Positions 71-10,964 of a DNA stretch of 11,227 bases are shown one piece after another (within the stretch, counting starts at the first letter, position 1; each line of letters starts with the position of its first letter). The translations under genes were made by a program, and so were the position numbers. Origin of the DNA: an uncultured bacterium. Lineage in GTDB: Bacteria; Abyssobacteria; SURF-5. The DNA lies in contig CAZEBC010000132.1 in the NCBI GenBank assembly GCA_964510165.1, forward strand, positions 1 through 11,227, written 5' to 3'. The notes beneath the pieces are model-generated. The model ran no database searches. It saw only the letters and a list, made by a program, of their open reading frames with translations, and was not told the DNA's origin.

Positions 71-595
71 TCATTTTACGAAGTTCAAATCGAGGTTCAT
101 TTCGGCGGCCAGACGCAGGAGATCATCCTTGACGGTGGCGATCGATGTGGTCGCCGGGACATTTGCCTCCAGAATCAGGTCAAACAGGGAAGCGCCGGAC
201 AGGGGAGCGCTGGTAACCCGGGTATCCAGGGTCAGGATGTTCACATTGTGGTGATGCAGAAGAGAGACAACCTTCTGGACAATTCCCGGATGGTCCATGG
301 AGATTATCTCAAGCTTCAAAGGGAGGCCTGCCTGTCGCGGAACAGCGGCCGGGTCATCCGCCTCGTGAAGAGAGACCTCAAACCCCGTCGCCCTGAGTTT
401 GTCCAAATCGCGAGTGATCGCACTCAGTTGCTCCGAACTGCATGAAAAGAGAGTCATGACAGAGAATCGTCCTCCGAGGGCAGCCATGCGGCTGTCTTCA
501 ATGTTTGCTCCTCGCTCGAAGAGGAAAGTCGAGACATCGTCCGCGATTCCGGGGCGATCCCTTCCCACCAGGAATAATATCCTATATTCCTTCAT
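71..595 (-). CDS. gcvR: GcvR-like double ACT-domain protein (glycine cleavage regulator family)
   Basis: 174 aa with two ACT starts (GRDRPGI...NIEDSRM and MDHPGIV...NILTLDT). Last gene of the gcv cluster; its ATG overlaps the lipB stop (ATGA, 592-595). Confidence 0.8.
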   Translation of the reverse strand: MKEYRILFLVGRDRPGIADDVSTFLFERGANIEDSRMAALGGRFSVMTLFSCSSEQLSAITRDLDKLRATGFEVSLHEADDPAAVPRQAGLPLKLEIISMDHPGIVQKVVSLLHHHNVNILTLDTRVTSAPLSGASLFDLILEANVPATTSIATVKDDLLRLAAEMNLDLNFVK

Positions 596-1311
596 CTGGC
601 CGTCCCCTGGTAAGATAATACCATTTCAAACTCCGATCTCTTCAATGGAACAATTTGTACTTCGAAGACTCTTTCGAGTTGACGCAAGAGAGCCTCCTTC
701 ACATTATCCAAAGGCAATTCCCGCGACAATTCTTGCTGCATTGAAGTCATGCTTGCTCCCTTGAGTCCACACGGATCAACCCACTCAAACGGTTCCAGCG
801 AAACATTCGCGTTCAGTGCGAGGCCGTGAAACGTGATCCCGTGGCGAATTGCCACGCCGATGCTTCCCAGTTTTCTCCCGCCTGCCCAGACTCCTCTGTT
901 CAAGCTGTTCCGTTCCGCTGGAATACCCCACTCCCCCGCCACACCAATCATGGCCTCTTCTAGACCGGAGATGTACTCGTCGGCGCTCAGTCCGGCCTTC
1001 GCCAGGCATATGATGGGATATACGACCAACTGGCCGGGTCCGTGAAAAGTGACGCTGCCCCCTCGCTCCGTTTGCATGACGGCAATTCCCGATTCTTCGA
1101 GAAAGCGTTCCGTGACCTTAATGCTCTCTCGGCCGCCCCTTCGACCGAGCGTGAATACGGGATGATGCTGCACTGAAATGACAACGTCTGAATCGAGCTC
1201 CCCACTGAATCTCGCGGCAACAAGGCTGTGCTGAAGATTCCACGTCGCCAGGTAGTCCATAACCGGCAACTCGATCAGCCGCCAGTTTTTCGTTTTCGAC
1301 GAAACAGCCAT
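592..1311 (-). CDS. lipB: Lipoyl(octanoyl) transferase LipB
   Basis: LipB motifs HHPVFTLGRR, RGGSVTFHGPGQLVVYPI, KLGSIGV, HGLALN and catalytic PCG; located in the gcv cluster. Confidence 0.95.
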   Translation of the reverse strand: MAVSSKTKNWRLIELPVMDYLATWNLQHSLVAARFSGELDSDVVISVQHHPVFTLGRRGGRESIKVTERFLEESGIAVMQTERGGSVTFHGPGQLVVYPIICLAKAGLSADEYISGLEEAMIGVAGEWGIPAERNSLNRGVWAGGRKLGSIGVAIRHGITFHGLALNANVSLEPFEWVDPCGLKGASMTSMQQELSRELPLDNVKEALLRQLERVFEVQIVPLKRSEFEMVLSYQGTAR

Positions 1312-1338: not shown

Positions 1339-2796
1339 TTACCCTGTGAGACACGGATGCCGTGCGGCTCCGGTCTCATCCAGTCTCCTGACCTTGCTTC
1401 TGTCAGGCGCGGTGCGAAGCGCCTCCAGGCCCGACTCCGCCTCGCCTGCAATGGTTTTGCAGACCTCGATGAAAAGGTCTATCTCTTCTTTGGATTCGGT
1501 CTCGGTAGGTTCTACCATGATTGCGCCGCTCACCACCAATGGAAAGTAAACCGTCGGCGGATGAAATCCATAATCAATGAGGCGTTTTGCTATTTCAAGG
1601 GTTGTGATCTTATGCTGCCTCTGCAATTTGTCCGAGAACACGCACTCATGCATGCAGGGGCGATCATAGGGAAGATGAAACACGTCTTTCAACCTGGCCC
1701 TGATGTAATTGGCGTTCAGGACAGCAAGCTGGCTGGCCTTCTTCAGGTTTTCGGCGCCCATGCTGAGGATGTACGCATACGCTCTTATCATGACGCCGAA
1801 GTTTCCATAAAATGAGTGGATTCTTCCGATGGAGTCCGGATTCTCATAGGAAAGAGAGTACTTGCCGCCGCCCTCCGTTACGCGAGGGACAGGCAAGAAC
1901 TTCTCAAGGTGTTTCTTCACGCACACGGGGCCGGAGCCTGGGCCGCCTCCTCCATGCGGGGTGGAGAACGTCTTGTGAAGGTTGAGATGTTGAACGTCCA
2001 CCCCGATGTCTCCCATCCGAACAATACCCATCACCGCGTTCATGTTTGCGCCGTCGCCGTAAACGAGCCCGCCCTTCGCGTGCACAATCCTGGCAATTTC
2101 GATGATGTTCTCTTCAAACAGGCCGAGCGTGTTCGGATTGGTGATCATTATGCCCGCCGTTTCTTCATCCATGACCTCGGCAACTGCTTCCGGAGAGAGA
2201 ACCCCCCGTTCATTCGACCTCACCGGCACCGGTTGATACCCGCACAGTGCGGCGCTCGCCGGGTTTGTGCCGTGTGCGGTATCCGGCACAATGATTTTGG
2301 AGCGAAAAGTGCCGTTGCTCTTGTGAAACGCGTTGATGATGAGCATTCCGGTGAGTTCCCCGTGGGCTCCAGCGGCGGGTTGGAGCGAGACTGCGTCCAT
2401 CCCGGTGATCTCGGCTAATAACCGTTCGAGATTGAACATCAACCTCAGCATGCCTTGTGAGAGCGACGCCGGAAGTAAGGGATGCGCGCCGGCGAGTCCC
2501 GGATGGGCCGCCAGCTTCTCGTTGAGTTTCGGGTTGTACTTCATGGTGCAGGAGCCCAATGGATACATTCCGGTATCGACACCGAAGTTCCATTGCGATA
2601 GCCGCACATAGTGGCGCACGACGTCGAGTTCGCTCAAATCCGGAAAATCCGGGCCGCCACCCTCGATACTCTTGTCCAAAGGGAACGAGTCTACGTCGCT
2701 GACGGGGAGACTCATACCGCTGCGTCCCTTTTTCCCCTTCTCCCAGAGCAGTGGTTCGTTAAAGATCAAGCCCGTGGCGCCAGGAAATTCCGTCAT
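1339..2796 (-). CDS. gcvPB: Glycine dehydrogenase (decarboxylating) P-protein subunit 2
   Basis: PLGSCTMKYNP, QPAAGAHGE, AHGTNPASA and PLP-lysine motif LNLHKTFSTPHGGGGPG. Start placed at ATG 2796 (GGAGG RBS 7 nt upstream, ATGA overlap with the gcvPA stop) rather than 2856. Confidence 0.96.
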   Translation of the reverse strand: MTEFPGATGLIFNEPLLWEKGKKGRSGMSLPVSDVDSFPLDKSIEGGGPDFPDLSELDVVRHYVRLSQWNFGVDTGMYPLGSCTMKYNPKLNEKLAAHPGLAGAHPLLPASLSQGMLRLMFNLERLLAEITGMDAVSLQPAAGAHGELTGMLIINAFHKSNGTFRSKIIVPDTAHGTNPASAALCGYQPVPVRSNERGVLSPEAVAEVMDEETAGIMITNPNTLGLFEENIIEIARIVHAKGGLVYGDGANMNAVMGIVRMGDIGVDVQHLNLHKTFSTPHGGGGPGSGPVCVKKHLEKFLPVPRVTEGGGKYSLSYENPDSIGRIHSFYGNFGVMIRAYAYILSMGAENLKKASQLAVLNANYIRARLKDVFHLPYDRPCMHECVFSDKLQRQHKITTLEIAKRLIDYGFHPPTVYFPLVVSGAIMVEPTETESKEEIDLFIEVCKTIAGEAESGLEALRTAPDRSKVRRLDETGAARHPCLTG

Positions 2797-4112
2797 TGTT
2801 GAACCTCCCTCACGAGGGCATCCATGTCTTTCCTGGTCTTTGCTTCGGTAACGCACAGCAGGTGTTGGCCGGCAAGCTCGGGATAATAGGCATCCAACGG
2901 AAGGCCGGCCAATATGTTCTTTTCAAGCAGTCTTTCATACGTGGAACGCGCATGCTTCGGATACTTCACCACGAATTCATTGAACGTCGCGGATGGGAAT
3001 GTGATGGTACATCCCGCCTTTTTCAGCGCGCTCTTGAGATATTCGGTCTTATCGTAATTGAGTCGGGCCAGTTTCCGAATGCCCGTCCCGCCGAGAGAAG
3101 CCATGTAAATCGCGGATGCCAGGGCGCAGAGACTATGATTGGTACAGATATTAGAGGTCGCTTTTTCTCTCCGGATGTGCTGTTCCCTTGTGGCGAGCGT
3201 CAGCACGAAACCGCGCTTTCCGTTTACATCCGTGGTTTGGCCCACCAGGCGTCCCGGCATGTTTCTGACGTAGTTCATCCTGGTGGCGAACATCCCCAGC
3301 CCCGGCCCTCCGAACCATTGCGGGATACCAAGGCTCTGGCCTTCTCCGCAGGCTATGTCGGCGCCCTGTTCGCCCGGGTTCTTGAGAATCCCGTACGCCA
3401 ACGGCTCCGTGAATGCGACCACACAGAGCGCGCCTTTCCCATGGGCTTCTTGTGCGACTTCGTCAACACGCTCGACGATGCCGAAAAAATTCGGTGACTG
3501 CACGGCAATTGCGGCCAATCCATCATGCACGTCAATGTTTGAAAAGTCTGTGCGACCTTCAGTGTCATACACTAGCTCCACCACTTCATATCCAGTGGGC
3601 GCAAAATAAGTCTTGATCACCTGCCGATAAAAAGGATGAACCAGGCGTGACACGGCCACCTTCCCGCGCTTGGTCACGCGAATGGCCATAAGCAACGCTT
3701 CCGCCAGGGCGGACGCGCCGTCGTACAGCGACGCATTGGCCACTTCCATCCCCAGGAGCCGGGCCGTCAGCGTCTGGTACTCATAAATGGCCTGGAGCGT
3801 GCCCTGGCTGACTTCCGGCTGGTAAGGAGTGTACGCGGTCGCAAACTCGGAGCGCCCTGCAAGGAAGGATACGGTCTCCGGAATATGGTGCTCGTAGCTG
3901 CCCGCCCCTATGAATACCTTGCAGCCGTGATGTGCAGAAAGGGCTGCCATGTGTTCCTTGAGTTCCCATTCCGTCATCGGGCCGGGGAGATTCAATTCCC
4001 CTGGATACCGACAACCTTTGGGCACAGTGGAGAAAAGCTCGTCAAGGCTGGCCGCGCCAACCGTCTTGAGCATCGAAGCAATATCTTCATCGGTATGAGG
4101 AAGGAAGCGCAT
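2793..4112 (-). CDS. gcvPA: Glycine dehydrogenase (decarboxylating) P-protein subunit 1
   Basis: TAYTPYQPEVSQGTLQAIYEYQ, ANASLYDGASALAEA, GGPGLG, TREQHIRREKATSNICTN. Its ATG directly abuts the gcvH TAG. Confidence 0.96.
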   Translation of the reverse strand: MRFLPHTDEDIASMLKTVGAASLDELFSTVPKGCRYPGELNLPGPMTEWELKEHMAALSAHHGCKVFIGAGSYEHHIPETVSFLAGRSEFATAYTPYQPEVSQGTLQAIYEYQTLTARLLGMEVANASLYDGASALAEALLMAIRVTKRGKVAVSRLVHPFYRQVIKTYFAPTGYEVVELVYDTEGRTDFSNIDVHDGLAAIAVQSPNFFGIVERVDEVAQEAHGKGALCVVAFTEPLAYGILKNPGEQGADIACGEGQSLGIPQWFGGPGLGMFATRMNYVRNMPGRLVGQTTDVNGKRGFVLTLATREQHIRREKATSNICTNHSLCALASAIYMASLGGTGIRKLARLNYDKTEYLKSALKKAGCTITFPSATFNEFVVKYPKHARSTYERLLEKNILAGLPLDAYYPELAGQHLLCVTEAKTRKDMDALVREVQQ

Positions 4113-4517
4113 CTAATCTGTTCCTTTCAGCTTTTCCAGATAATCCTTCCTGTTCAACAAGGAGTCCAACTCAGCCGGGTTATGCGGCTTCACCATGATT
4201 ATCCATCCGTCACCGTAAGGGTCCTTGTTTATCAGGTCGGGCGAGTCCTCCAGAGTCTCGTTCACCGCCACAACCTCTCCGCCGAGCGGCATAAACAGTT
4301 CGGAAACGGCCTTCGTTGATTCCACGGTTCCGAACTCGTCGCCTGGATTGAAGGTCGTGCCAACTTCGGGCATGCCCACAAACGTGATGTCGCCCAGTTG
4401 ATCCTGGGCATAATCGGAAATGCCTATTCGCACCTTGTCACCCTCGCGCCTCGCCCACTCGTGGTCTTCGGAATATCGGATGTCATCGGGAAAATTCAGC
4501 TCGCCTAGCTCCTTCAT
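4113..4517 (-). CDS. gcvH: Glycine cleavage system H protein
   Basis: HEW, GISDYAQDQLGDI, lipoyl-lysine motif VESTKAVSEL, INKDPYGDGW. Start at ATG 4517 with a GAAGGAG RBS 6 nt upstream (134 aa). Confidence 0.96.
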   Translation of the reverse strand: MKELGELNFPDDIRYSEDHEWARREGDKVRIGISDYAQDQLGDITFVGMPEVGTTFNPGDEFGTVESTKAVSELFMPLGGEVVAVNETLEDSPDLINKDPYGDGWIIMVKPHNPAELDSLLNRKDYLEKLKGTD

Positions 4518-4540: not shown

Positions 4541-4573
4541 GGGCGCAGCCACGCTGAGGCGTGGGGCCCCTAC
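4541..4573 (-). repeat. Degenerate GTAG-type REP-like hairpin overlapping the gcvT-glyA stop codon
   Basis: Minus strand reads GTAGGGGCCCCACGC-CTCA-GCGTGGCTGCGCCC, with a perfect 6-bp CCACGC/GCGTGG stem. It starts GTAGGGGC and ends GCGCCC, like the REP at 10232-10257. Confidence 0.45.
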
Positions 4574-7215
4574 AGTAACTCGTGAAGTTTTTGCAGTATA
4601 TCCGCGTACTCATCTCCGCGGAAACAGAACTGAATCTCGCAGAACGGCTTTCGCAGTTCCTTGATGCGCTCCTTCACATTTTTTCCTCTGATAATGACAT
4701 CGCTCATCAGTTCTGCCATGCGCCTGAACTGTTCCTCGCCCATGCCGAACCGGGTCATCTCCGCGACTCCGAGCCTCAACCCGCCCGCCGCCGTAAACCC
4801 CTCATCCTCAGGGGTGGCCTGGTAGTTGCAGATGATGTTATTGGTTTCGAGACGCCTTGCCATCTCGGGCCCACGCGAATACCCGACGTTCACAACCACC
4901 TGGTGTGTTTCGGTATAGCTGATAGACGGGTCCCCGGCCACATCCAGCCCGCACTCTTTCAGCGCCCTCGCGAACGCCTTCGCGTTGGCGATCACTTTCG
5001 GCTGATACTCGTCCTTGAAATGGTTCATCTCGAAAGCGGCCATCAGCAAACCAAGCAGGGTTCCGAGGTGATGATTCGAGACCGAGCCGGGGAATGTCCG
5101 GCGGAGCACTGCCTCCCAGAGTTCGTACCGCACGTCATGCTCCACGAAACGCGAGCCTATAACCCCGCGCTGCGTGCCGAAAAACGTCTTGTGCGTGGAG
5201 CCGGTCACGAAGTCCGCCCCTTCCTCAAATGGTGTCTGGAAGTGCGGCCCTAGCAGCCCGAGCACATGCGCTGCATCGTACATCACAATGCAATTGATTC
5301 CTTGGGCGTCGAGAAAACGCCGAATCTCGGCCACCGGCTCCTTGTGCAGGAACATGCTCTTGCCGAAGACGATCAAATCAGGGCGGTAATCGTCAATCAA
5401 CTCCAGCGTGGCTGGCAGGTCGATCTTGTAACGGTTTTCCTCAAGCACGGGGAAATTCTCGACCGCCGCCCGCTCGGTCAAAAGATCGCGCGCGACGTAG
5501 TCGCGCAACGCGCCCATCGGCTGAGCGCTCAGGTGGCCGCCCTTGCCTATATGGTGGTTCAACACGCGGGCGATGCGCAGCGGCTCACGTTTGCGGTCGG
5601 CGAAGTTGATGTAGTCCACCAACGCGCTGAAGACCGCCATGTTGGCCGTCTGGCCGCTGATCAGGCGCATCTCGACTTCCTCACATCCGAGAAATTTTCT
5701 GAATTCCTCGTCCAGCAGCCGCTCGACCTCCGCGATGAAATCGGTGCCCTGATAGTAGAAGACCTCGGCCTCGTAGAGCGCCTCCATCTTCTTGTGCTCG
5801 GCATAACGGAATGCCGGGTCCATCACCGACAACAGCCTCGCCATGGGCGAGGCCGTCATCTCCGAAGGAATGAGGTTGACGCACTCCCGCTGACGCCATA
5901 CCGTGTTCTCGAGCGCCTTTTCCAGGAGGAGGTGCACCTTGGCGGACACTTGGCTTGGCGCGGATTTTCCCTCCGGCAATTCCTGACCATAAACGATCGG
6001 GCGGGCGTAGGGCGGCGCCTCTCCCCGAAGATGGAACGGAACCACGATGGCCTCGACCTTCTTGCCGCGTATTTCGACCGTCACCCGCTCGTCCTCGATG
6101 ATGTCGCTATCAAGCAGAGCGAGTGCGATTGCGCGCAGCTTGTGTTGGTCGCCCGGAACGGAAGTTAAACCCTCTCCTTCAAACACCCACATCGGCACGG
6201 TCGTGCCGCTGGTCACATAGCCGACATGTCGCCCGTCTTTGAAGACCTTGTCGCCCGCCCGGGCCACTCCACGGCCGAGCATCGTGATCGGTCGAATCAT
6301 TCGCGGCAAATCGGCGATCAGCGAGTAATCGCCGTACACGATCCTCTTGAACGCCTCTTGCTGACGTTCCAGCGCTGCCCGACCGACATAATTTCCCTTT
6401 AGCGGAGAAAAGCTTACGGCGAATTTGGCCAGTGGAACTGCAAAGATGGGAATTTCCTTTCCCTCGGAGTCCTTGCCCAACTCATGCCCATACAGCGGCA
6501 GGCCCGCTTCCAGCCGGAGTGTGTCGCGTGCGCCGAGTCCGCATGGGGTAGCGCCCTCGGCGACAAAAGTGTCCCATAGACAAGACGCGCTCTCGCGCTT
6601 GACAAAAAGCTCGAACCGGATTGGTTCGCCTGTATAGCCAGTGCGTCCCACCATCACGTCTGCATCGCAGATTCTGACGGTGCTCAATTCATTCGGCAAC
6701 GGTTCGGGCAGCCGACCGGACTGGATGACCTTGAGGAGTATCTCTCGCGACACCGACCCCTGCAGCGCCAACATCGCCAATTCTTCCGTATGATCAGCCA
6801 GCTCCACATCGCTGAACTGCTTCAATAATGACCGAAGATGCTCCAGGTCCTTTCCGCGATTGTCAGCGTTGACGACGAGCAGATATTCATCCTCCACAAA
6901 GCGGTACAGGTATGCGTCGTCGACGGCGCCCCCTGTCTCGTTCGGAATGAAGGTATACTGAGCTTGCTCAAGATCAAGCGCCTGGGCGTTGTTGCTCAGC
7001 GCGTGTTGAAGGAAGCGGATCGCTCCGGGGCCGCGTATAGTCATTCGGCCCATATGCGAAATGTCGAAGACGCCCGCTCGCTTGCGTGTCGCGAGGTGTT
7101 CGCCCACAATGCCGGCGGGGTAATAAAGCGGCATCTCCCAGCCGACGAAGTCAACCATCTTCGCACCGAGCGCAACGTGCCGGTCATGGCAGACAGTTCG
7201 TCGAAGCTCTTTCAT
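4570..7215 (-). CDS. gcvT: Bifunctional fusion: N-terminal aminomethyltransferase GcvT plus C-terminal serine hydroxymethyltransferase (GlyA, archaeal-type motifs)
   Basis: One uninterrupted ORF of ~881 aa (alternative ATG at 7224 gives 884 aa). GcvT half: FVGWEMP, FDISHMG, GGAVDD, RTGYTGE, GLGARDTLRLEAGLPLYGHEL, VGYVTSG. SHMT half (from ~5950): NLIPSE, RYAE, YYQG, GGHLS, YDAAHVLGL, STHKTFFG (PLP Lys at 5188-5190), GLRLG. Confidence 0.93.
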   Translation of the reverse strand: MKELRRTVCHDRHVALGAKMVDFVGWEMPLYYPAGIVGEHLATRKRAGVFDISHMGRMTIRGPGAIRFLQHALSNNAQALDLEQAQYTFIPNETGGAVDDAYLYRFVEDEYLLVVNADNRGKDLEHLRSLLKQFSDVELADHTEELAMLALQGSVSREILLKVIQSGRLPEPLPNELSTVRICDADVMVGRTGYTGEPIRFELFVKRESASCLWDTFVAEGATPCGLGARDTLRLEAGLPLYGHELGKDSEGKEIPIFAVPLAKFAVSFSPLKGNYVGRAALERQQEAFKRIVYGDYSLIADLPRMIRPITMLGRGVARAGDKVFKDGRHVGYVTSGTTVPMWVFEGEGLTSVPGDQHKLRAIALALLDSDIIEDERVTVEIRGKKVEAIVVPFHLRGEAPPYARPIVYGQELPEGKSAPSQVSAKVHLLLEKALENTVWRQRECVNLIPSEMTASPMARLLSVMDPAFRYAEHKKMEALYEAEVFYYQGTDFIAEVERLLDEEFRKFLGCEEVEMRLISGQTANMAVFSALVDYINFADRKREPLRIARVLNHHIGKGGHLSAQPMGALRDYVARDLLTERAAVENFPVLEENRYKIDLPATLELIDDYRPDLIVFGKSMFLHKEPVAEIRRFLDAQGINCIVMYDAAHVLGLLGPHFQTPFEEGADFVTGSTHKTFFGTQRGVIGSRFVEHDVRYELWEAVLRRTFPGSVSNHHLGTLLGLLMAAFEMNHFKDEYQPKVIANAKAFARALKECGLDVAGDPSISYTETHQVVVNVGYSRGPEMARRLETNNIICNYQATPEDEGFTAAGGLRLGVAEMTRFGMGEEQFRRMAELMSDVIIRGKNVKERIKELRKPFCEIQFCFRGDEYADILQKLHELL

Positions 7216-7730
7216 CTCTTGCATACTCTCTGGATGATTGCGTTAACGACGGCGTCAATGCCGTCAGTTTCAGAAATCTCTATCACTATGTCAGCGTAGT
7301 TCCTGTAAAGAGGCAGCCGATCCTCAAAAAGCGCTCTCAAACCTTTCTTCTTAAGTCCGACGATACCACGCGTGTCTTTGTTCGCAAGGCGGTTCTCTAT
7401 GCTCCCGAATGACGCATGCAAGAATACGATTGCTGAGTGTTCTCTCAAAAACTGCATCGCAGCCCTTGAATAGATTACACTGCCGCCGGGGGAAATGATG
7501 CTCCTCTCGACTTTGCCCAGGCTCAGGACCGCTCGTTCCTCGATTTCCAGAAACTTCTCGTCGCCGGAATTGTCGAGTGTCTCTTGCAGCTTCTGCCCTG
7601 TCGCTCGTTCGATTATTTCATCAATCTCGACAAATGCATAATCGAGTCGCCTGGCCAGTTCCCGGCCTATCACGCTCTTGCCGACGCCGGCCATTCCAAT
7701 CAGGGTTATGTTCGTACTCATAGCTTTCAT
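7212..7730 (-). CDS. Shikimate-kinase-fold P-loop kinase (AroK-like; substrate uncertain)
   Basis: NITLIGMAGVGKS Walker A, DEIIE, ISPGGSVIY and C-terminal RLPLY; ~170 aa. Start at ATG 7730 or 7721. Its stop overlaps the gcvT ATG (ATGA, 7212-7215). Confidence 0.85.
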   Translation of the reverse strand: MKAMSTNITLIGMAGVGKSVIGRELARRLDYAFVEIDEIIERATGQKLQETLDNSGDEKFLEIEERAVLSLGKVERSIISPGGSVIYSRAAMQFLREHSAIVFLHASFGSIENRLANKDTRGIVGLKKKGLRALFEDRLPLYRNYADIVIEISETDGIDAVVNAIIQRVCKR

Positions 7731-7887: not shown

Positions 7888-10125
7888 ATGAATGACTGGA
7901 AGAAAACCACATGCGTGCTCTGTGCGGTGAACTGCGGTTTGGAGGTCCAGACCGAGGGAAACCGAATTGCCAAGGTTAGGCCCGACAAGGACTGTCCTCG
8001 CAGCCAGGGATATGCGTGCCGCAAAGGGCTATCTATCGCCTATTTTCAGAGCCACGCCCAGAGGCTTACCCATCCGCTCAAGAGGGTCGGAGACAAGTTC
8101 GAGAGAATCTCATGGCAACAGGCCACAAGCGAGATCGCCGCGAGGTTAAAGGAGATTGTAGCGACTCACGGCCCCAAATCGTTCGCGTACATGGGAGGTG
8201 GCGGACAGGGCTGCCATCTTGAGGCCGCGTTCGGCGTTCGGCTCTTGAGGGCGCTTGGTTCGCGCTACCATTACTCCGCGCTCGCGCAGGAACTGACCGG
8301 CTTCTTCTATGTTCAGGGCGAAGCCCTCGGGCGTCAATACCTCCATGTGTTCCCCGACGTCGAGCGCACCGACGTCCTTGTCCTTTGGGGCAGCAACGCA
8401 TGGCGCAGCCACGGGATGAACCGTGCCCGGCCCGAGCTCATGCGCTTGAGCAAAGACCCGAACAAGCTTCTGATTGTGATTGACCCGTGCAAGACCGAGA
8501 CCGCAATGCGCGCAAACATTCATCTCGCTCCGCGGCCCGGCACCGACGCGCTGCTCCTTAAGGCGATGATCGCCATGATTCTTGACGACCGCATATATGA
8601 CGAGGAGTATGTGGAGGAATCTACGACTGGCTTTAGCGAAATTCTGCCGCTTTTCTCAAATTTCGACGTGAGCGAGGCGCTCAAAGTATGCGAGCTTGAT
8701 GAGCGCGAGGTGCGCGAGGTGGTCCACCTGCTCGCGGCCAATCGGTGCAGCTTCCGCTCCGACCTCGGCCTGCTCATGGGACGCAGCAGCACCATGAATT
8801 CGTATCTCGAGATGATTCTGATCAATCTGCTCGGGAACATTGGAAAACCCGGAGGCAACGTCTTCCTCGGACACCTTGTCCCACTCGGCTCACACACGCC
8901 CATCGAAGACCCCGCCAACTGGCGGACCGTCGAGGCCGGCTTCCCCGCGATCATGGGCGTGTACCCGCCAAATGTCGTGCCCGAGGAAATCCTGAGCGAC
9001 AAACCGGAGCGTTTGCGCGCGGTCCTTGTCAGCGGCTCGAACCCGCTCATCACGTACGCGGACACACACGCATACGAGGAAGCCTTCAAGAAACTGGACC
9101 TGCTGGTGACCGTCGAAGTCGCGATGACCGAGACCGCCCAGTCGTCCCACTACGTCCTGCCCGCCAAGTCCGCATACGAGAAATGGGATGCGTCGTTCTT
9201 CTCCTGGAAATATCCCGAATACTATTTCCATTTGCGACGGCCCGTGTGCGAATGGCTCGGCGAACCCAGGGAGGAAGCCGAGATATACACCGACCTCGCG
9301 GAGGCGCTCAGCGTGATTCCCGCCTATCCGCGAGAGTTAGAGGAACTCGCCTCCGGCGACCGCATGGCGTACGGAATGGCATTGATGGACTACCTCGCCG
9401 AGAATCCGAAGAGCGCCGATATGCTGCCGTTCATCGTAGCGAAGACCCTCGGCAAGGCGCTCGGCTCGCCCGCATTGTCCCTGGTATGGGCGATTTTGAA
9501 CCGGTATTGCCAAACTGCCGGCCCCAAGCTTGAACGCGCGGGGTATACCCTCTCCCCCGCTCTCGGCGACGAGCTTTTCGAGAAGATGCGCACTACCCCG
9601 GGCGATATGCTGCTCGGCGTGCAAGATATGGAAAACAATCTCACCGAGAACATCAAGACCTACGATAGAAAGGTGCATCTGCACATACCCGCGTTGGACG
9701 CATGGCTTGCCGAAATCAACCCGACAGATGAATCGAAGGCTCTGGAAACTCCGGGCTACCCGATGACGCTCGTTGCGGGCGAGCGCACCGACTTCAACGC
9801 CAACTCTCTCATGCGCGACCCCGACTGGACCGCCGGCACGCGCGCCTGCACGATGAAGGTTCATCCCGAAGACGCGAAAAGCCTCGGGCTTGAGACCGGC
9901 ATGACGGCGCGCATCGAGACCGAGGCAGGTTCGCTCGATGTGTCGGTCGAGGTCAGCGGAGTGCCGCGACGCGGAATGGTTATCATTCCCCACGGTTTCG
10001 GCATGGAGTACCGCGGGCACACTGACGGCGTGAACGTGAACTGTCTCACTCCCGCTCGCAACCGCGACCGTCTCGCGGCCACACCCTTGCACCGGTTCGT
10101 GCCATGCAAAGTCTCGAGAATATGA
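7888..10125 (+). CDS. Molybdopterin-dependent oxidoreductase, DMSO reductase family catalytic subunit (cytoplasmic, 4Fe-4S)
   Basis: N-terminal CVLCAVNC...CRKG Fe-S motif, WGSN, VIDPCKTETA, PRPGTDA, GSNP, MTETA..SHYVLPA, and a C-terminal dinucleotide-binding domain (HPEDA..LGL, IPHGFG, NVN.LT). No Tat signal. Confidence 0.92.
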   Translation: MNDWKKTTCVLCAVNCGLEVQTEGNRIAKVRPDKDCPRSQGYACRKGLSIAYFQSHAQRLTHPLKRVGDKFERISWQQATSEIAARLKEIVATHGPKSFAYMGGGGQGCHLEAAFGVRLLRALGSRYHYSALAQELTGFFYVQGEALGRQYLHVFPDVERTDVLVLWGSNAWRSHGMNRARPELMRLSKDPNKLLIVIDPCKTETAMRANIHLAPRPGTDALLLKAMIAMILDDRIYDEEYVEESTTGFSEILPLFSNFDVSEALKVCELDEREVREVVHLLAANRCSFRSDLGLLMGRSSTMNSYLEMILINLLGNIGKPGGNVFLGHLVPLGSHTPIEDPANWRTVEAGFPAIMGVYPPNVVPEEILSDKPERLRAVLVSGSNPLITYADTHAYEEAFKKLDLLVTVEVAMTETAQSSHYVLPAKSAYEKWDASFFSWKYPEYYFHLRRPVCEWLGEPREEAEIYTDLAEALSVIPAYPRELEELASGDRMAYGMALMDYLAENPKSADMLPFIVAKTLGKALGSPALSLVWAILNRYCQTAGPKLERAGYTLSPALGDELFEKMRTTPGDMLLGVQDMENNLTENIKTYDRKVHLHIPALDAWLAEINPTDESKALETPGYPMTLVAGERTDFNANSLMRDPDWTAGTRACTMKVHPEDAKSLGLETGMTARIETEAGSLDVSVEVSGVPRRGMVIIPHGFGMEYRGHTDGVNVNCLTPARNRDRLAATPLHRFVPCKVSRI

Positions 10126-10181
10126 TTACCTGCAAAAATGAGCGTCATAAGGACTCAGTTGCCGAATCCCCTTTTCGAGGT

Positions 10182-10269
10182 TGTCCCGTAATTTGGTATT
10201 TGGTCGTAGGGCCGGCCCTGTGTGGCCGCCCGGGCGCCCACATAGGGGCGCCCCTACAATTACGGGACA
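10182..10269. mobile_element. Putative MITE-like element bounded by perfect 12-bp terminal inverted repeats
   Basis: TGTCCCGTAATT (10182-10193) and AATTACGGGACA (10258-10269) are exact reverse complements and enclose a REP doublet. No transposase in the window. Confidence 0.5.
10206..10257. repeat. Inverted doublet of GTAG-family REP sequences (REPIN-like)
   Basis: GTAGGGCCGGCCCTGTGTGGCCGCCC (10206-10231) and the reverse complement of 10232-10257 (GTAGGGGCGCCCCTATGTGGGCGCCC) are 22/26 identical. Each is GTAG followed by a GC hairpin. Confidence 0.75.
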
Positions 10270-10270
10270 G

Positions 10271-10309
10271 TCCCCCTTCCCCCCTTTCTAAGAGGGGGAG
10301 TAAGGGGGA
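10271..10309. repeat. C-tract/G-tract hairpin repeat (CCCCCTT...AAGGGGG type)
   Basis: TCCCCCTT (10271-10278) pairs with AAGGGGGA (10302-10309); inner CCCCCT (10280-10285) pairs with AGGGGG (10293-10298). Confidence 0.55.
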
Positions 10310-10360
10310 TTTCGAATGAACCGACATCACGTGATTACAACGTAGTACTGGGAAGCGCAC

Positions 10361-10861
10361 ATGACCGACGCCAAAAAGAAAATCGAAGCTCTGCGAAAGG
10401 ACCTGTTCCTGGCAACCGCCAACCGGGGCCTGGCCTACACCGCCATCTTGAGGGAATTGCGGAAGGAACTCGGAGACGAACGAGCGAGCGAAATCTTCAA
10501 GCGCGCCATATACAACCACGGCGCAAATGTTGCCAGACTCTTCAATCCCCCCAACACGCTCGCCGAGTTCAAGGACTGGCTGCTGGATTTCTTCCCCGAT
10601 GAAGGCGCGATGAACGAGCCCGAGGTCATCCGGTGCGACGAACACGAACTGGCCGTGAGGCTTCCCCGCTGCCCCCTCAAGGAGGGCTGGCGAATGTTCG
10701 GCCTCTCTGATGAGGAAGTCGCAGACATGTGCCGTCACGCCGACGCCTTCGACCACGGCTTTTTCGGCAGTTTCTTCGACTACGAGATGGAACTCTGGGC
10801 GAACCGGCCGGACGACGCCTGTGTGCTGCACTTCTGGCCAAAGGGGCACTCCCGGGTGTAG
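10361..10861 (+). CDS. L-2-amino-thiazoline-4-carboxylic acid hydrolase-like (ATC_hydrolase / V4R-like) small protein, function unknown
   Basis: 166 aa with a helical N-terminus (LRKELGDERASEIFKRAIYNHG), then RCPLKEGW..FG...MC..AD.FD and a C-terminal C-x-L-x-F, a pattern typical of this family. GGAAG RBS upstream. Confidence 0.7.
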   Translation: MTDAKKKIEALRKDLFLATANRGLAYTAILRELRKELGDERASEIFKRAIYNHGANVARLFNPPNTLAEFKDWLLDFFPDEGAMNEPEVIRCDEHELAVRLPRCPLKEGWRMFGLSDEEVADMCRHADAFDHGFFGSFFDYEMELWANRPDDACVLHFWPKGHSRV

Positions 10862-10927
10862 GCGCGAATACATTCGCACATGCATGCCCTCCGATAATCT
10901 CTCCAATGTGCGGACAGCTCCATCTCT

Positions 10928-10964
10928 ATCTGTAACCCATCTGTAACCCCTGCCGCGATACAAT
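10928..10964 (+). promoter_or_regulatory. Tandem 11-bp direct repeat (OmpR/PhoB-family box-like) followed by a -10 element
   Basis: Two exact copies of ATCTGTAACCC (10928-10938, 10939-10949), then TACAAT at 10959-10964. Confidence 0.5.

Follow-up and report, generated by a model that had tools for sequence, protein, structure and literature searches.

In plant mitochondria, glycine decarboxylase is coupled to serine hydroxymethyltransferase (SHMT): two glycines yield serine, CO2 and NH3, with methylene-tetrahydrofolate (methylene-THF) passing from the T-protein to SHMT. These are two separate proteins, and the SHMT is canonical. In two papers, the SHMT GlyA is reported in versions specific for tetrahydrofolate (H4F, or THF) and for tetrahydromethanopterin (H4MPT) (PMC3697235, PMC9012536). 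The archaeal SHMT of Methanocaldococcus jannaschii is a standalone enzyme of ~430 aa from an H4MPT-using methanogen. We analyzed an 11,227-nucleotide contig (CAZEBC010000132.1 of assembly GCA_964510165.1; the whole stretch is called the window below) from an uncultured bacterium of the Abyssobacteria lineage SURF-5, in which a single open reading frame (ORF) encodes a T-protein, GcvT, joined to an archaeal-type SHMT. The net chemistry that we propose for the fusion is that of plant mitochondria, carried out by one polypeptide with an archaeal-type SHMT. It is most likely a bifunctional THF-dependent module that couples the reactions of the sole T-protein of the genome and of this SHMT.

An earlier note on this DNA, made from the letters alone, had quoted three motifs of the SHMT half as archaeal-type signatures. 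All three were found in the translation of the fusion, whose parts are as follows.

4570..7224, minus strand: GcvT-SHMT fusion ORF, 884 aa, a single open frame with its stop codon at 4570-4572.
6010..7224, minus strand: GcvT (aminomethyltransferase) half, residues 1-405, with the Pfam domains GCV_T (12-253) and GCV_T_C (364-396).
5935..6009, minus strand: inter-domain linker, residues 406-430, between the Pfam domains; residues 415-421 have a predicted local distance difference test score (pLDDT) <50.
4573..5934, minus strand: archaeal-type SHMT half, residues 431-884, with the Pfam domain SHMT (436-839).
5212..5280, minus strand: motif YDAAHVLGLLGPHFQTPFEEGAD, residues 649-671 of the fusion translation, which holds D650.
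5164..5205, minus strand: motif TGSTHKTFFGTQRG, residues 674-687 of the fusion translation, which holds K679, the pyridoxal phosphate (PLP) lysine.
5065..5094, minus strand: motif FPGSVSNHHL, residues 711-720 of the fusion translation.

A comparison of the SHMT half with the whole of the PDB gave 88 distinct matching sequences at E <= 0.001. The M. jannaschii SHMT (4uqv/4bhd) ranked first with 181.3 bits (E 2.8e-52), followed by an L-threonine transaldolase (7k34, 108.6 bits); the best bacterial or eukaryotic SHMT reached 88.5 bits and that of E. coli (1dfo) 75.2 bits. At the sequence level, the archaeal-type match is thus far beyond chance. The SHMT half was recognized by Pfam SHMT (PF00464; 125 bits, cut-off 27), and it failed both the NCBIfam GlyA model NF000586 (241.4 bits against a cut-off of 335) and the fluorothreonine transaldolase model TIGR04506 (131.6 bits against 650). 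A Foldseek search with an AlphaFold2 (AF2) model also placed 4bhd first for the C-terminal half (TMt 0.88).

The M. jannaschii enzyme is therefore the nearest solved relative by both sequence and predicted fold (TMt 0.87-0.88). It shares the motifs YD.AHVLGL..FQ.P..EGA, GSTHKTFFG.Q.G and FPG..SNHHL with the SHMT half and belongs to the same major clade. Nevertheless, identity is just ~33-35%, and the window's domain differs by two extra insertions, SEM for SEN, NYQ for NKN and TQRG for PQGG, by its fusion to GcvT and by its occurrence in a genome without matches to H4MPT marker genes. The transaldolase 7K34, the second solved relative (TMt 0.83), is a much weaker match, and its alignment spans query residues 177-455 only. 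Canonical GlyA (NF000586/PRK00011) belongs to the same fold-type I PLP enzyme family and has the catalytic Lys, Asp, Arg and Glu at the same positions, but its motif signature and that of the window's SHMT domain are mutually exclusive, and a branch supported at 100/100 separates the two. Sequence, predicted fold, the failure against NF000586 and this split in the tree all back the view of the earlier note that the SHMT half is archaeal-type and not a canonical GlyA.

That note had contrasted bacterial with archaeal motifs, and we compared this contrast with real sequences. A scan of GTDB (one genome per species, with an alignment led by standalone enzymes) matched at least 600 stretches, of which 599 were confirmed and the best 80 kept. 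All of these best 80 of 599 are standalone genes with frames of 407-497 aa. By record title, 57 are archaeal and 21 bacterial; the Altiarchaeota and Aminicenantes rows were counted in neither group. These 57 and 21 standalone archaeal-type SHMTs were set against 28 canonical GlyA from the window's genome and its relatives. The motifs THK..GPR and PG.QGGP occur in 28/28 canonical GlyA and in none of the archaeal (0/57) or bacterial (0/21) standalones. Conversely, THK..G.Q is found in every archaeal-type standalone (57/57 and 21/21, 78/78 together) and in 0/28 canonical GlyA, and an SNHHL-like motif in 48/57 archaeal and 20/21 bacterial standalones and again in 0/28. The pattern D.[AS]H[VIT].G[LIMF] does not discriminate: it is present in 57/57 archaeal and 21/21 bacterial standalones, yet also in 21/28 canonical GlyA. 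The canonical variant, D[IMLV][AS]H.[AS]G, separates the two types (28/28 against 0/78). The two types are exemplified by the second glyA of the window's genome, which carries DIAHIAGL, TVTTHKTLRGPRGG and FPGIQGGP, and by the Methanocaldococcus SHMT, which carries MGSTHKTFFGPQGG and FPGVVSNHHL. The contrast thus holds among 28 canonical and 78 archaeal-type sequences for the THK and the PG.QGGP/SNHHL motifs.

We then placed the SHMT domain in a quick tree of 83 rows and in a careful one of 78 rows and 441 columns (LG+C20+F+G4 with posterior mean site frequencies, PMSF), from which P0148, P0158, P0172, P0263 and P0270 were left out for long branches or odd composition. Eight bacterial sequences served as the outgroup, the root being assumed, and the taxonomy of metagenome-assembled genomes (MAGs) was taken from record titles. 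The two trees agree. Eight canonical GlyA, including that of the window's own genome, split from all archaeal-type rows at 100/100, so that the SHMT domain does not branch within canonical bacterial GlyA, the outcome that the earlier note had named as contrary to its proposal. With the root on the GlyA branch, Archaeoglobi, Methanococci and Methanobacteria, Thermococci and Thermoplasmata are basal, followed by TACK and DPANN groups. A clade of 34 rows (100/99) contains 16 named bacterial standalones, 13 fused proteins, 2 near-standalones and 3 rows without a taxon, and none of its rows is named archaeal. The named bacteria are Planctomycetota, Latescibacterota, SAR324 and other Pseudomonadota MAGs, Ktedonobacteria and Tectimicrobiota; an Aminicenantes MAG, a Clostridia MAG, an unclassified bacterial MAG and genome G028 are also in this clade. 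Its sister is a Micrarchaeota sequence (100/99). Within it, the fused proteins fall into a single clade (100/100; stem length, 0.79) that also includes three shorter proteins, P0133, P0138 and P0167.

By these trees, the bacterial and fused sub-clade is nested among archaeal sequences. A constraint that made the 26 archaeal rows a monophyletic group, apart from the main bacterial and fused clade and from canonical GlyA, lowered the log-likelihood (lnL) by 24.9 units (approximately unbiased test, p-AU 0.025). The evidence against archaeal monophyly excluding the bacterial and fused clade is moderately strong, and just that, because the constrained group was chosen with the tree already in view. 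The "archaeal lineage" proposed in the earlier note therefore needs qualification: the SHMT half does belong to the archaeal-type clade, but its nearest relatives are standalone archaeal-type SHMTs of bacteria, so any archaeal donor predates the fusion. These bacterial standalones, the closest sequences outside the fused clade (36-41% identity), carry PQRG and FPGSSSNHHL. They are unfused and rarely lie by gcv genes, whereas the window's domain is fused to GcvT and has a canonical GlyA beside it in the genome. Counting archaeal and bacterial loci together, gcv genes were found within ~6 kb of a standalone archaeal-type SHMT at 3/81 loci only, and we rejected the idea that the standalones were neighbors of gcv genes before the fusion. 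Elsewhere in the tree, the SHMTs of Patescibacteria (the candidate phyla radiation, CPR; L019, L046, L061 and L071) group separately with that of an Aenigmarchaeota, L051 (100/99). By its position, this group is a second, independent archaeal-bacterial link in the archaeal-type SHMT family.

The GcvT half looks bacterial, a conclusion that is more weakly supported. The fusion passes the NCBIfam GcvT models NF001567 (314.9 bits, cut-off 300) and TIGR00528 (248.8 bits, cut-off 235.85). The best solved matches of this half are 1woo (192 bits), the B. subtilis T-protein 1yx2 (188 bits) and 1vlo/3a8i (~165 bits), with the P. horikoshii T-protein 1v5v weaker at 146 bits; by predicted fold, the N-terminal half is closest to the T-proteins 1wos, 1woo and 1yx2. 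It thus resembles known T-proteins (1WOO, 1YX2, 1VLO/3A8I) in passing the GcvT cut-offs, in fold (TMt 0.85-0.90) and in its gcvH/gcvPA/gcvPB context, and differs from them by the addition of ~455 aa of C-terminal SHMT and by the grouping of the fused T-domains in a clade of their own. In a quick GcvT tree of 49 rows (20 fused, 16 bacterial and 12 archaeal T-proteins, and one dimethylglycine-oxidase-like outgroup), that clade received a Shimodaira-Hasegawa-like approximate likelihood ratio (SH-aLRT) support of 99, and a pair of bacterial GcvTs, of which one belongs to the family of the window's genome, branches as its sister group (SH-aLRT 95). Along the backbone of this tree, the branching order is unresolved. 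Of the chimera that the earlier note had proposed, the bacterial origin of the GcvT half thus gains some support from the ranking of PDB matches and from the sister pair, and none from the backbone.

Fused proteins are monophyletic in the trees of both halves, and a single fusion event is likely for that reason. The fused protein is widespread in MAGs of uncultured anaerobes. A search with the SHMT region through 5.8 billion proteins, limited to lengths of 486-1547 aa, gave at least 6061 proteins at E <= 0.001 among 8000 candidates scored. Among the matches listed (the best 120 of 6061), identity is 73-99%, and those of ~880 aa carry PF01571, PF00464 and PF08669. Their source names include Abyssubacteria (89% identity), Poribacteria, Zixibacteria, Syntrophobacteria and Deltaproteobacteria. 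Most matches listed are labeled just "GcvT", the second catalytic domain being absent from the source names seen. HMMER over 1.84 billion representatives at 50% identity gave 2268 matches at E <= 0.001, 225 of them at E <= 1e-30, among which are fused forms down to 34-40% identity and standalones of 410-485 aa. A contiguous GcvT-SHMT fusion is present at 22 of 74 metagenome loci, with gcvH and/or P-protein genes beside it at 11 of these 22. Leaving aside subscription-only papers, we found no description of a natural GcvT-SHMT fusion in the full-text literature; the Abyssubacteria genome paper mentions glycine in its reference list only.

Some loci depart from this pattern. At L183:2233-6459, gcvPA-gcvPB is directly followed by a fused-clade SHMT (49% identity), with no T-domain detected in the locus. 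Two very divergent fused proteins of 945-949 aa, P0148 and P0310 (37% identity in the SHMT half), and the standalone P0172 (470 aa) are labeled as coming from Candidatus Woesearchaeota MAGs; the fused clade may reach DPANN archaea, or these bins may be mixed. For the closest standalones and the divergent fused forms, the few taxon names obtained were those of Schekmanbacteria, Woesearchaeota and Pseudomonadota MAGs. In G010, the only relative of the same class from beyond the family, contigs C114 and C16 (loci L128 and L141) carry two frames of ~840-850 aa that have a GCV_T domain at the C-terminus, and the sole SHMT match of this genome is a canonical copy. The two frames are probably dimethylglycine- or sarcosine-oxidase-like fusions, not GcvT-SHMT.

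We examined the residues likely to be required for catalysis in an alignment of 29 fused proteins. In the SHMT half, D650, R817 and Y491 are present in 29/29, and K679 and E455 each in 27/29. We take K679 to be the PLP lysine, D650 the Asp partner of PLP, R817 the carboxylate-binding Arg and E455 the catalytic Glu. All four are present in the window's protein, whose SHMT half is predicted to be catalytically intact. In the T-domain, D102, D103, N119 and R233 are each conserved in 29/29. The AF2 model of the whole 884-aa chain, built from the 29-row alignment, has a mean pLDDT of 90.8 and a predicted template modeling score (pTM) of 0.88; the latter hints at a fixed arrangement of the two domains. 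In one fused sublineage, P0137 and P0304 (889 aa), His replaces the PLP lysine (GSAHHTFFGTQR), and the SHMT domain of that sublineage may be inactive. In the 29-row alignment, Leu replaces H564 in two rows and Gln replaces H653 in two; these may be the same proteins as P0137 and P0304 or others.

What does the fusion do in the cell? In the window's genome (G000) and in G004, G006, G007 and G009, it is the only GCV_T match and is therefore their T-protein. Each of the family's five genomes with the fusion also encodes a canonical GlyA, and the fused SHMT is thus an extra, dedicated copy. The earlier note had suggested looking for a second, canonical glyA, and the window's genome does contain one (G000:C30; Pfam, 547.6 bits). 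In the reading that we favor, the P-protein would decarboxylate glycine onto lipoyl-GcvH, and the T-domain would pass the methylene group to tetrahydrofolate with release of NH3. The SHMT domain of the same chain would next join 5,10-methylene-THF to a second glycine, giving serine and regenerating THF in place. The net, reversible reaction would be 2 Gly + lipoyl-H(ox) <-> Ser + CO2 + NH3 + dihydrolipoyl-H, with the housekeeping role left to the canonical GlyA elsewhere in the genome. The sequence data establish the architecture, the family placement, the conservation of catalytic residues and the set of cofactor genes in the genome; we infer the coupling of the reactions, the hand-over of methylene-THF between the domains and the direction of flux, which could serve either glycine catabolism or reductive glycine assimilation.

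Several points weigh against a THF-dependent bifunctional module. Characterized archaeal-type SHMTs prefer H4MPT or sulfopterin, according to the papers cited above (PMC3697235, PMC9012536). Just three marker families, searched for in a 325-contig draft genome, underlie the absence of H4MPT genes. The fused clade shows changes near the folate site, namely SEN to SEM or SEQ, NKN to NYQ (the second Asn being Gln in 26/29) and two insertions, as well as PQGG to TQRG. We take the second Asn of NKN to bind the pterin, and these substitutions may reflect a retuning of the folate site. At 11/22 fusion loci, no gcvH or P-protein genes are present within the locus DNA examined. Finally, we found in the literature no assay of any enzyme of the fused clade or of the bacterial archaeal-type clade.

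In the alternative that fares best, the SHMT half would work chiefly as an aldolase or transaldolase independently of THF, with threonine or a different beta-hydroxy amino acid as its substrate, and would feed glycine to the cleavage system, while the canonical GlyA performs the folate-dependent reaction. SHMTs have aldolase side activities, the genome already has a canonical GlyA, the L-threonine transaldolase 7k34 outranks every bacterial or eukaryotic SHMT at 108.6 bits, and the Asn-to-Gln change in NKN to NYQ and the SEN-to-SEM change also speak for this role. However, the M. jannaschii SHMT is a far better match than 7k34 (181 against 109 bits), which covers query residues 177-455 only, the score against the fluorothreonine transaldolase model is far below its cut-off (131.6 against 650), and 27/29 fused proteins retain the Glu of the SE(N/M) motif. 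A shared folate is also the simplest explanation for a fusion to a folate-using T-domain. We thus regard an aldolase role, which the earlier note had also raised, as unlikely.

Less likely still, by a clear step, is a fusion that uses a carrier other than THF because its SHMT half has retained the preference of archaeal enzymes for H4MPT or another modified pterin. The archaeal type of the domain, the selectivity of its characterized members for H4MPT or sulfopterin and the departure of the fused clade from canonical GlyA near the folate site speak for it. Against it, Mch (PF02289), Ftr (PF01913) and RFAP synthase (TIGR00144), the H4MPT genes that we searched for, gave 0 matches in the window's genome, which is 97% complete, with positive results in methanogen controls, and RFAP synthase was found in 0/4 fusion-bearing relatives. 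FolD, FTHFS (formate-THF ligase) and HPPK, in contrast, are present in the window's genome. Among solved structures, the T-proteins 1woo, 1yx2 and 1vlo are nearest to the fused T-domain, and 1vlo is titled THF-dependent.

Bacteria with the standalone enzyme also argue against a modified pterin. In 4/5 such genomes examined, the standalone archaeal-type enzyme is the sole SHMT match; these four (L003, L006, L013 and L030) are a planctomycete, a chromosome-level Latescibacterota MAG, a SAR324 and a Tectimicrobiota. The fifth, Ktedonosporobacter, has a canonical-like SHMT copy too. RFAP synthase was found in 0/5 of these genomes. Judging from gene content, the archaeal-type SHMT evidently functions in bacteria lacking H4MPT, which leaves the unusual pteridine preference suggested in the earlier note unsupported. 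The same four bacteria show that the type of GlyA alone fails to predict the C1 carrier, since their sole SHMT match is archaeal-type and they have no RFAP synthase match. For the fusion, the carrier is most likely THF, not H4MPT.

That the SHMT half is a noncatalytic structural, dimerizing or regulatory appendage of the T-protein is hardly credible: P0137 and P0304, with His for the PLP lysine, and the rows that differ at H564 or H653, two at each, show that the domain can lose catalytic residues yet persist, but the window's protein and 27/29 fused proteins have retained the PLP lysine, the carboxylate-binding Arg and the PLP-partner Asp are kept in 29/29, and SHMT-half identity of 73-77% across proteins source-named to several phyla indicates strong purifying selection.

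The bifunctional THF-dependent module that we favor can be extended into a broader proposal, which is possible and which we put forward more tentatively. The fusion would be a single-polypeptide glycine-serine interconverter that hands methylene-THF directly to a THF-retuned archaeal-type SHMT, bypassing the free folate pool. It would have arisen once and spread horizontally through many anaerobic bacterial phyla and possibly to DPANN archaea, where its role would lie in glycine catabolism or in the serine branch of the reductive glycine pathway.

The fusion ORF heads a gcvH-gcvPA-gcvPB-lipB cluster in a tight row of genes on the minus strand. The other features of the window are listed below.

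4113..4517, minus strand: gcvH (H-protein), Pfam GCV_H 144.6 bits, NF002270 168.9 bits against a cut-off of 117; the start is an internal ATG, M33 of the long ORF, chosen from the translation.
2793..4112, minus strand: gcvPA (P-protein subunit 1), NF001696 598.4 bits against a cut-off of 364.
1339..2796, minus strand: gcvPB (P-protein subunit 2), NF003346 707.3 bits against a cut-off of 441; the start is M21 of the long ORF, chosen from the translation, and overlaps the gcvPA stop.
592..1311, minus strand: lipB (octanoyl/lipoyl transferase), TIGR00214 148.7 bits against 83.55, NF010925 162.2 bits against 155.
71..595, minus strand: tandem-ACT protein, weakly GcvR-like, Pfam ACT_6 and ACT.
7212..7721, minus strand: shikimate-kinase-family gene, Pfam SKI 109 bits; start and overlap read from the sequence.
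7888..10125, plus strand: molybdopterin oxidoreductase, divergently transcribed; formate dehydrogenase alpha is the top-scoring model (237.7 bits, cut-off 666).
10145..10963, minus strand: ORF of 272 aa with no Pfam or NCBIfam match.

The lipB product would lipoylate the H-protein. The tandem-ACT protein scores 58.1 bits against the glycine cleavage repressor model NF008612, far under the cut-off of 267. The stop of the SKI-family gene overlaps the start codon of the fusion, the gene ending 13 nt inside the start of the fusion coding sequence, and its top NCBIfam model is the Desulfo-type homoserine kinase NF040667 (155.3 bits against a cut-off of 197). As a homologue was present at 0/74 metagenome loci, we rejected this kinase as a conserved partner of the fusion. 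An Rfam scan of the whole window (E <= 1) revealed no glycine riboswitch and a single sub-threshold snoRNA-like match. A formate dehydrogenase next to a gcv operon would suit the reductive glycine pathway.

Both halves of the fusion are textbook enzymes, and nothing about it is therefore categorically new. It is a new architectural variant of known enzymes and not a new kind of system, because the family is large and already in databases as GcvT. For annotation, fused proteins are now named "GcvT" alone, and the SHMT domain goes unmentioned in the source names seen. The covalent joining of a T-protein to SHMT provides a ready test case for methylene-THF channeling and a candidate part for engineered reductive-glycine or formate-assimilation pathways. 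For the SHMT family, the "archaeal" type also occurs outside archaea and is probably not tied to H4MPT, which bears on the use of GlyA phylogeny to deduce the C1 carrier, a practice already applied to the anaerobic methanotrophic (ANME) archaea.

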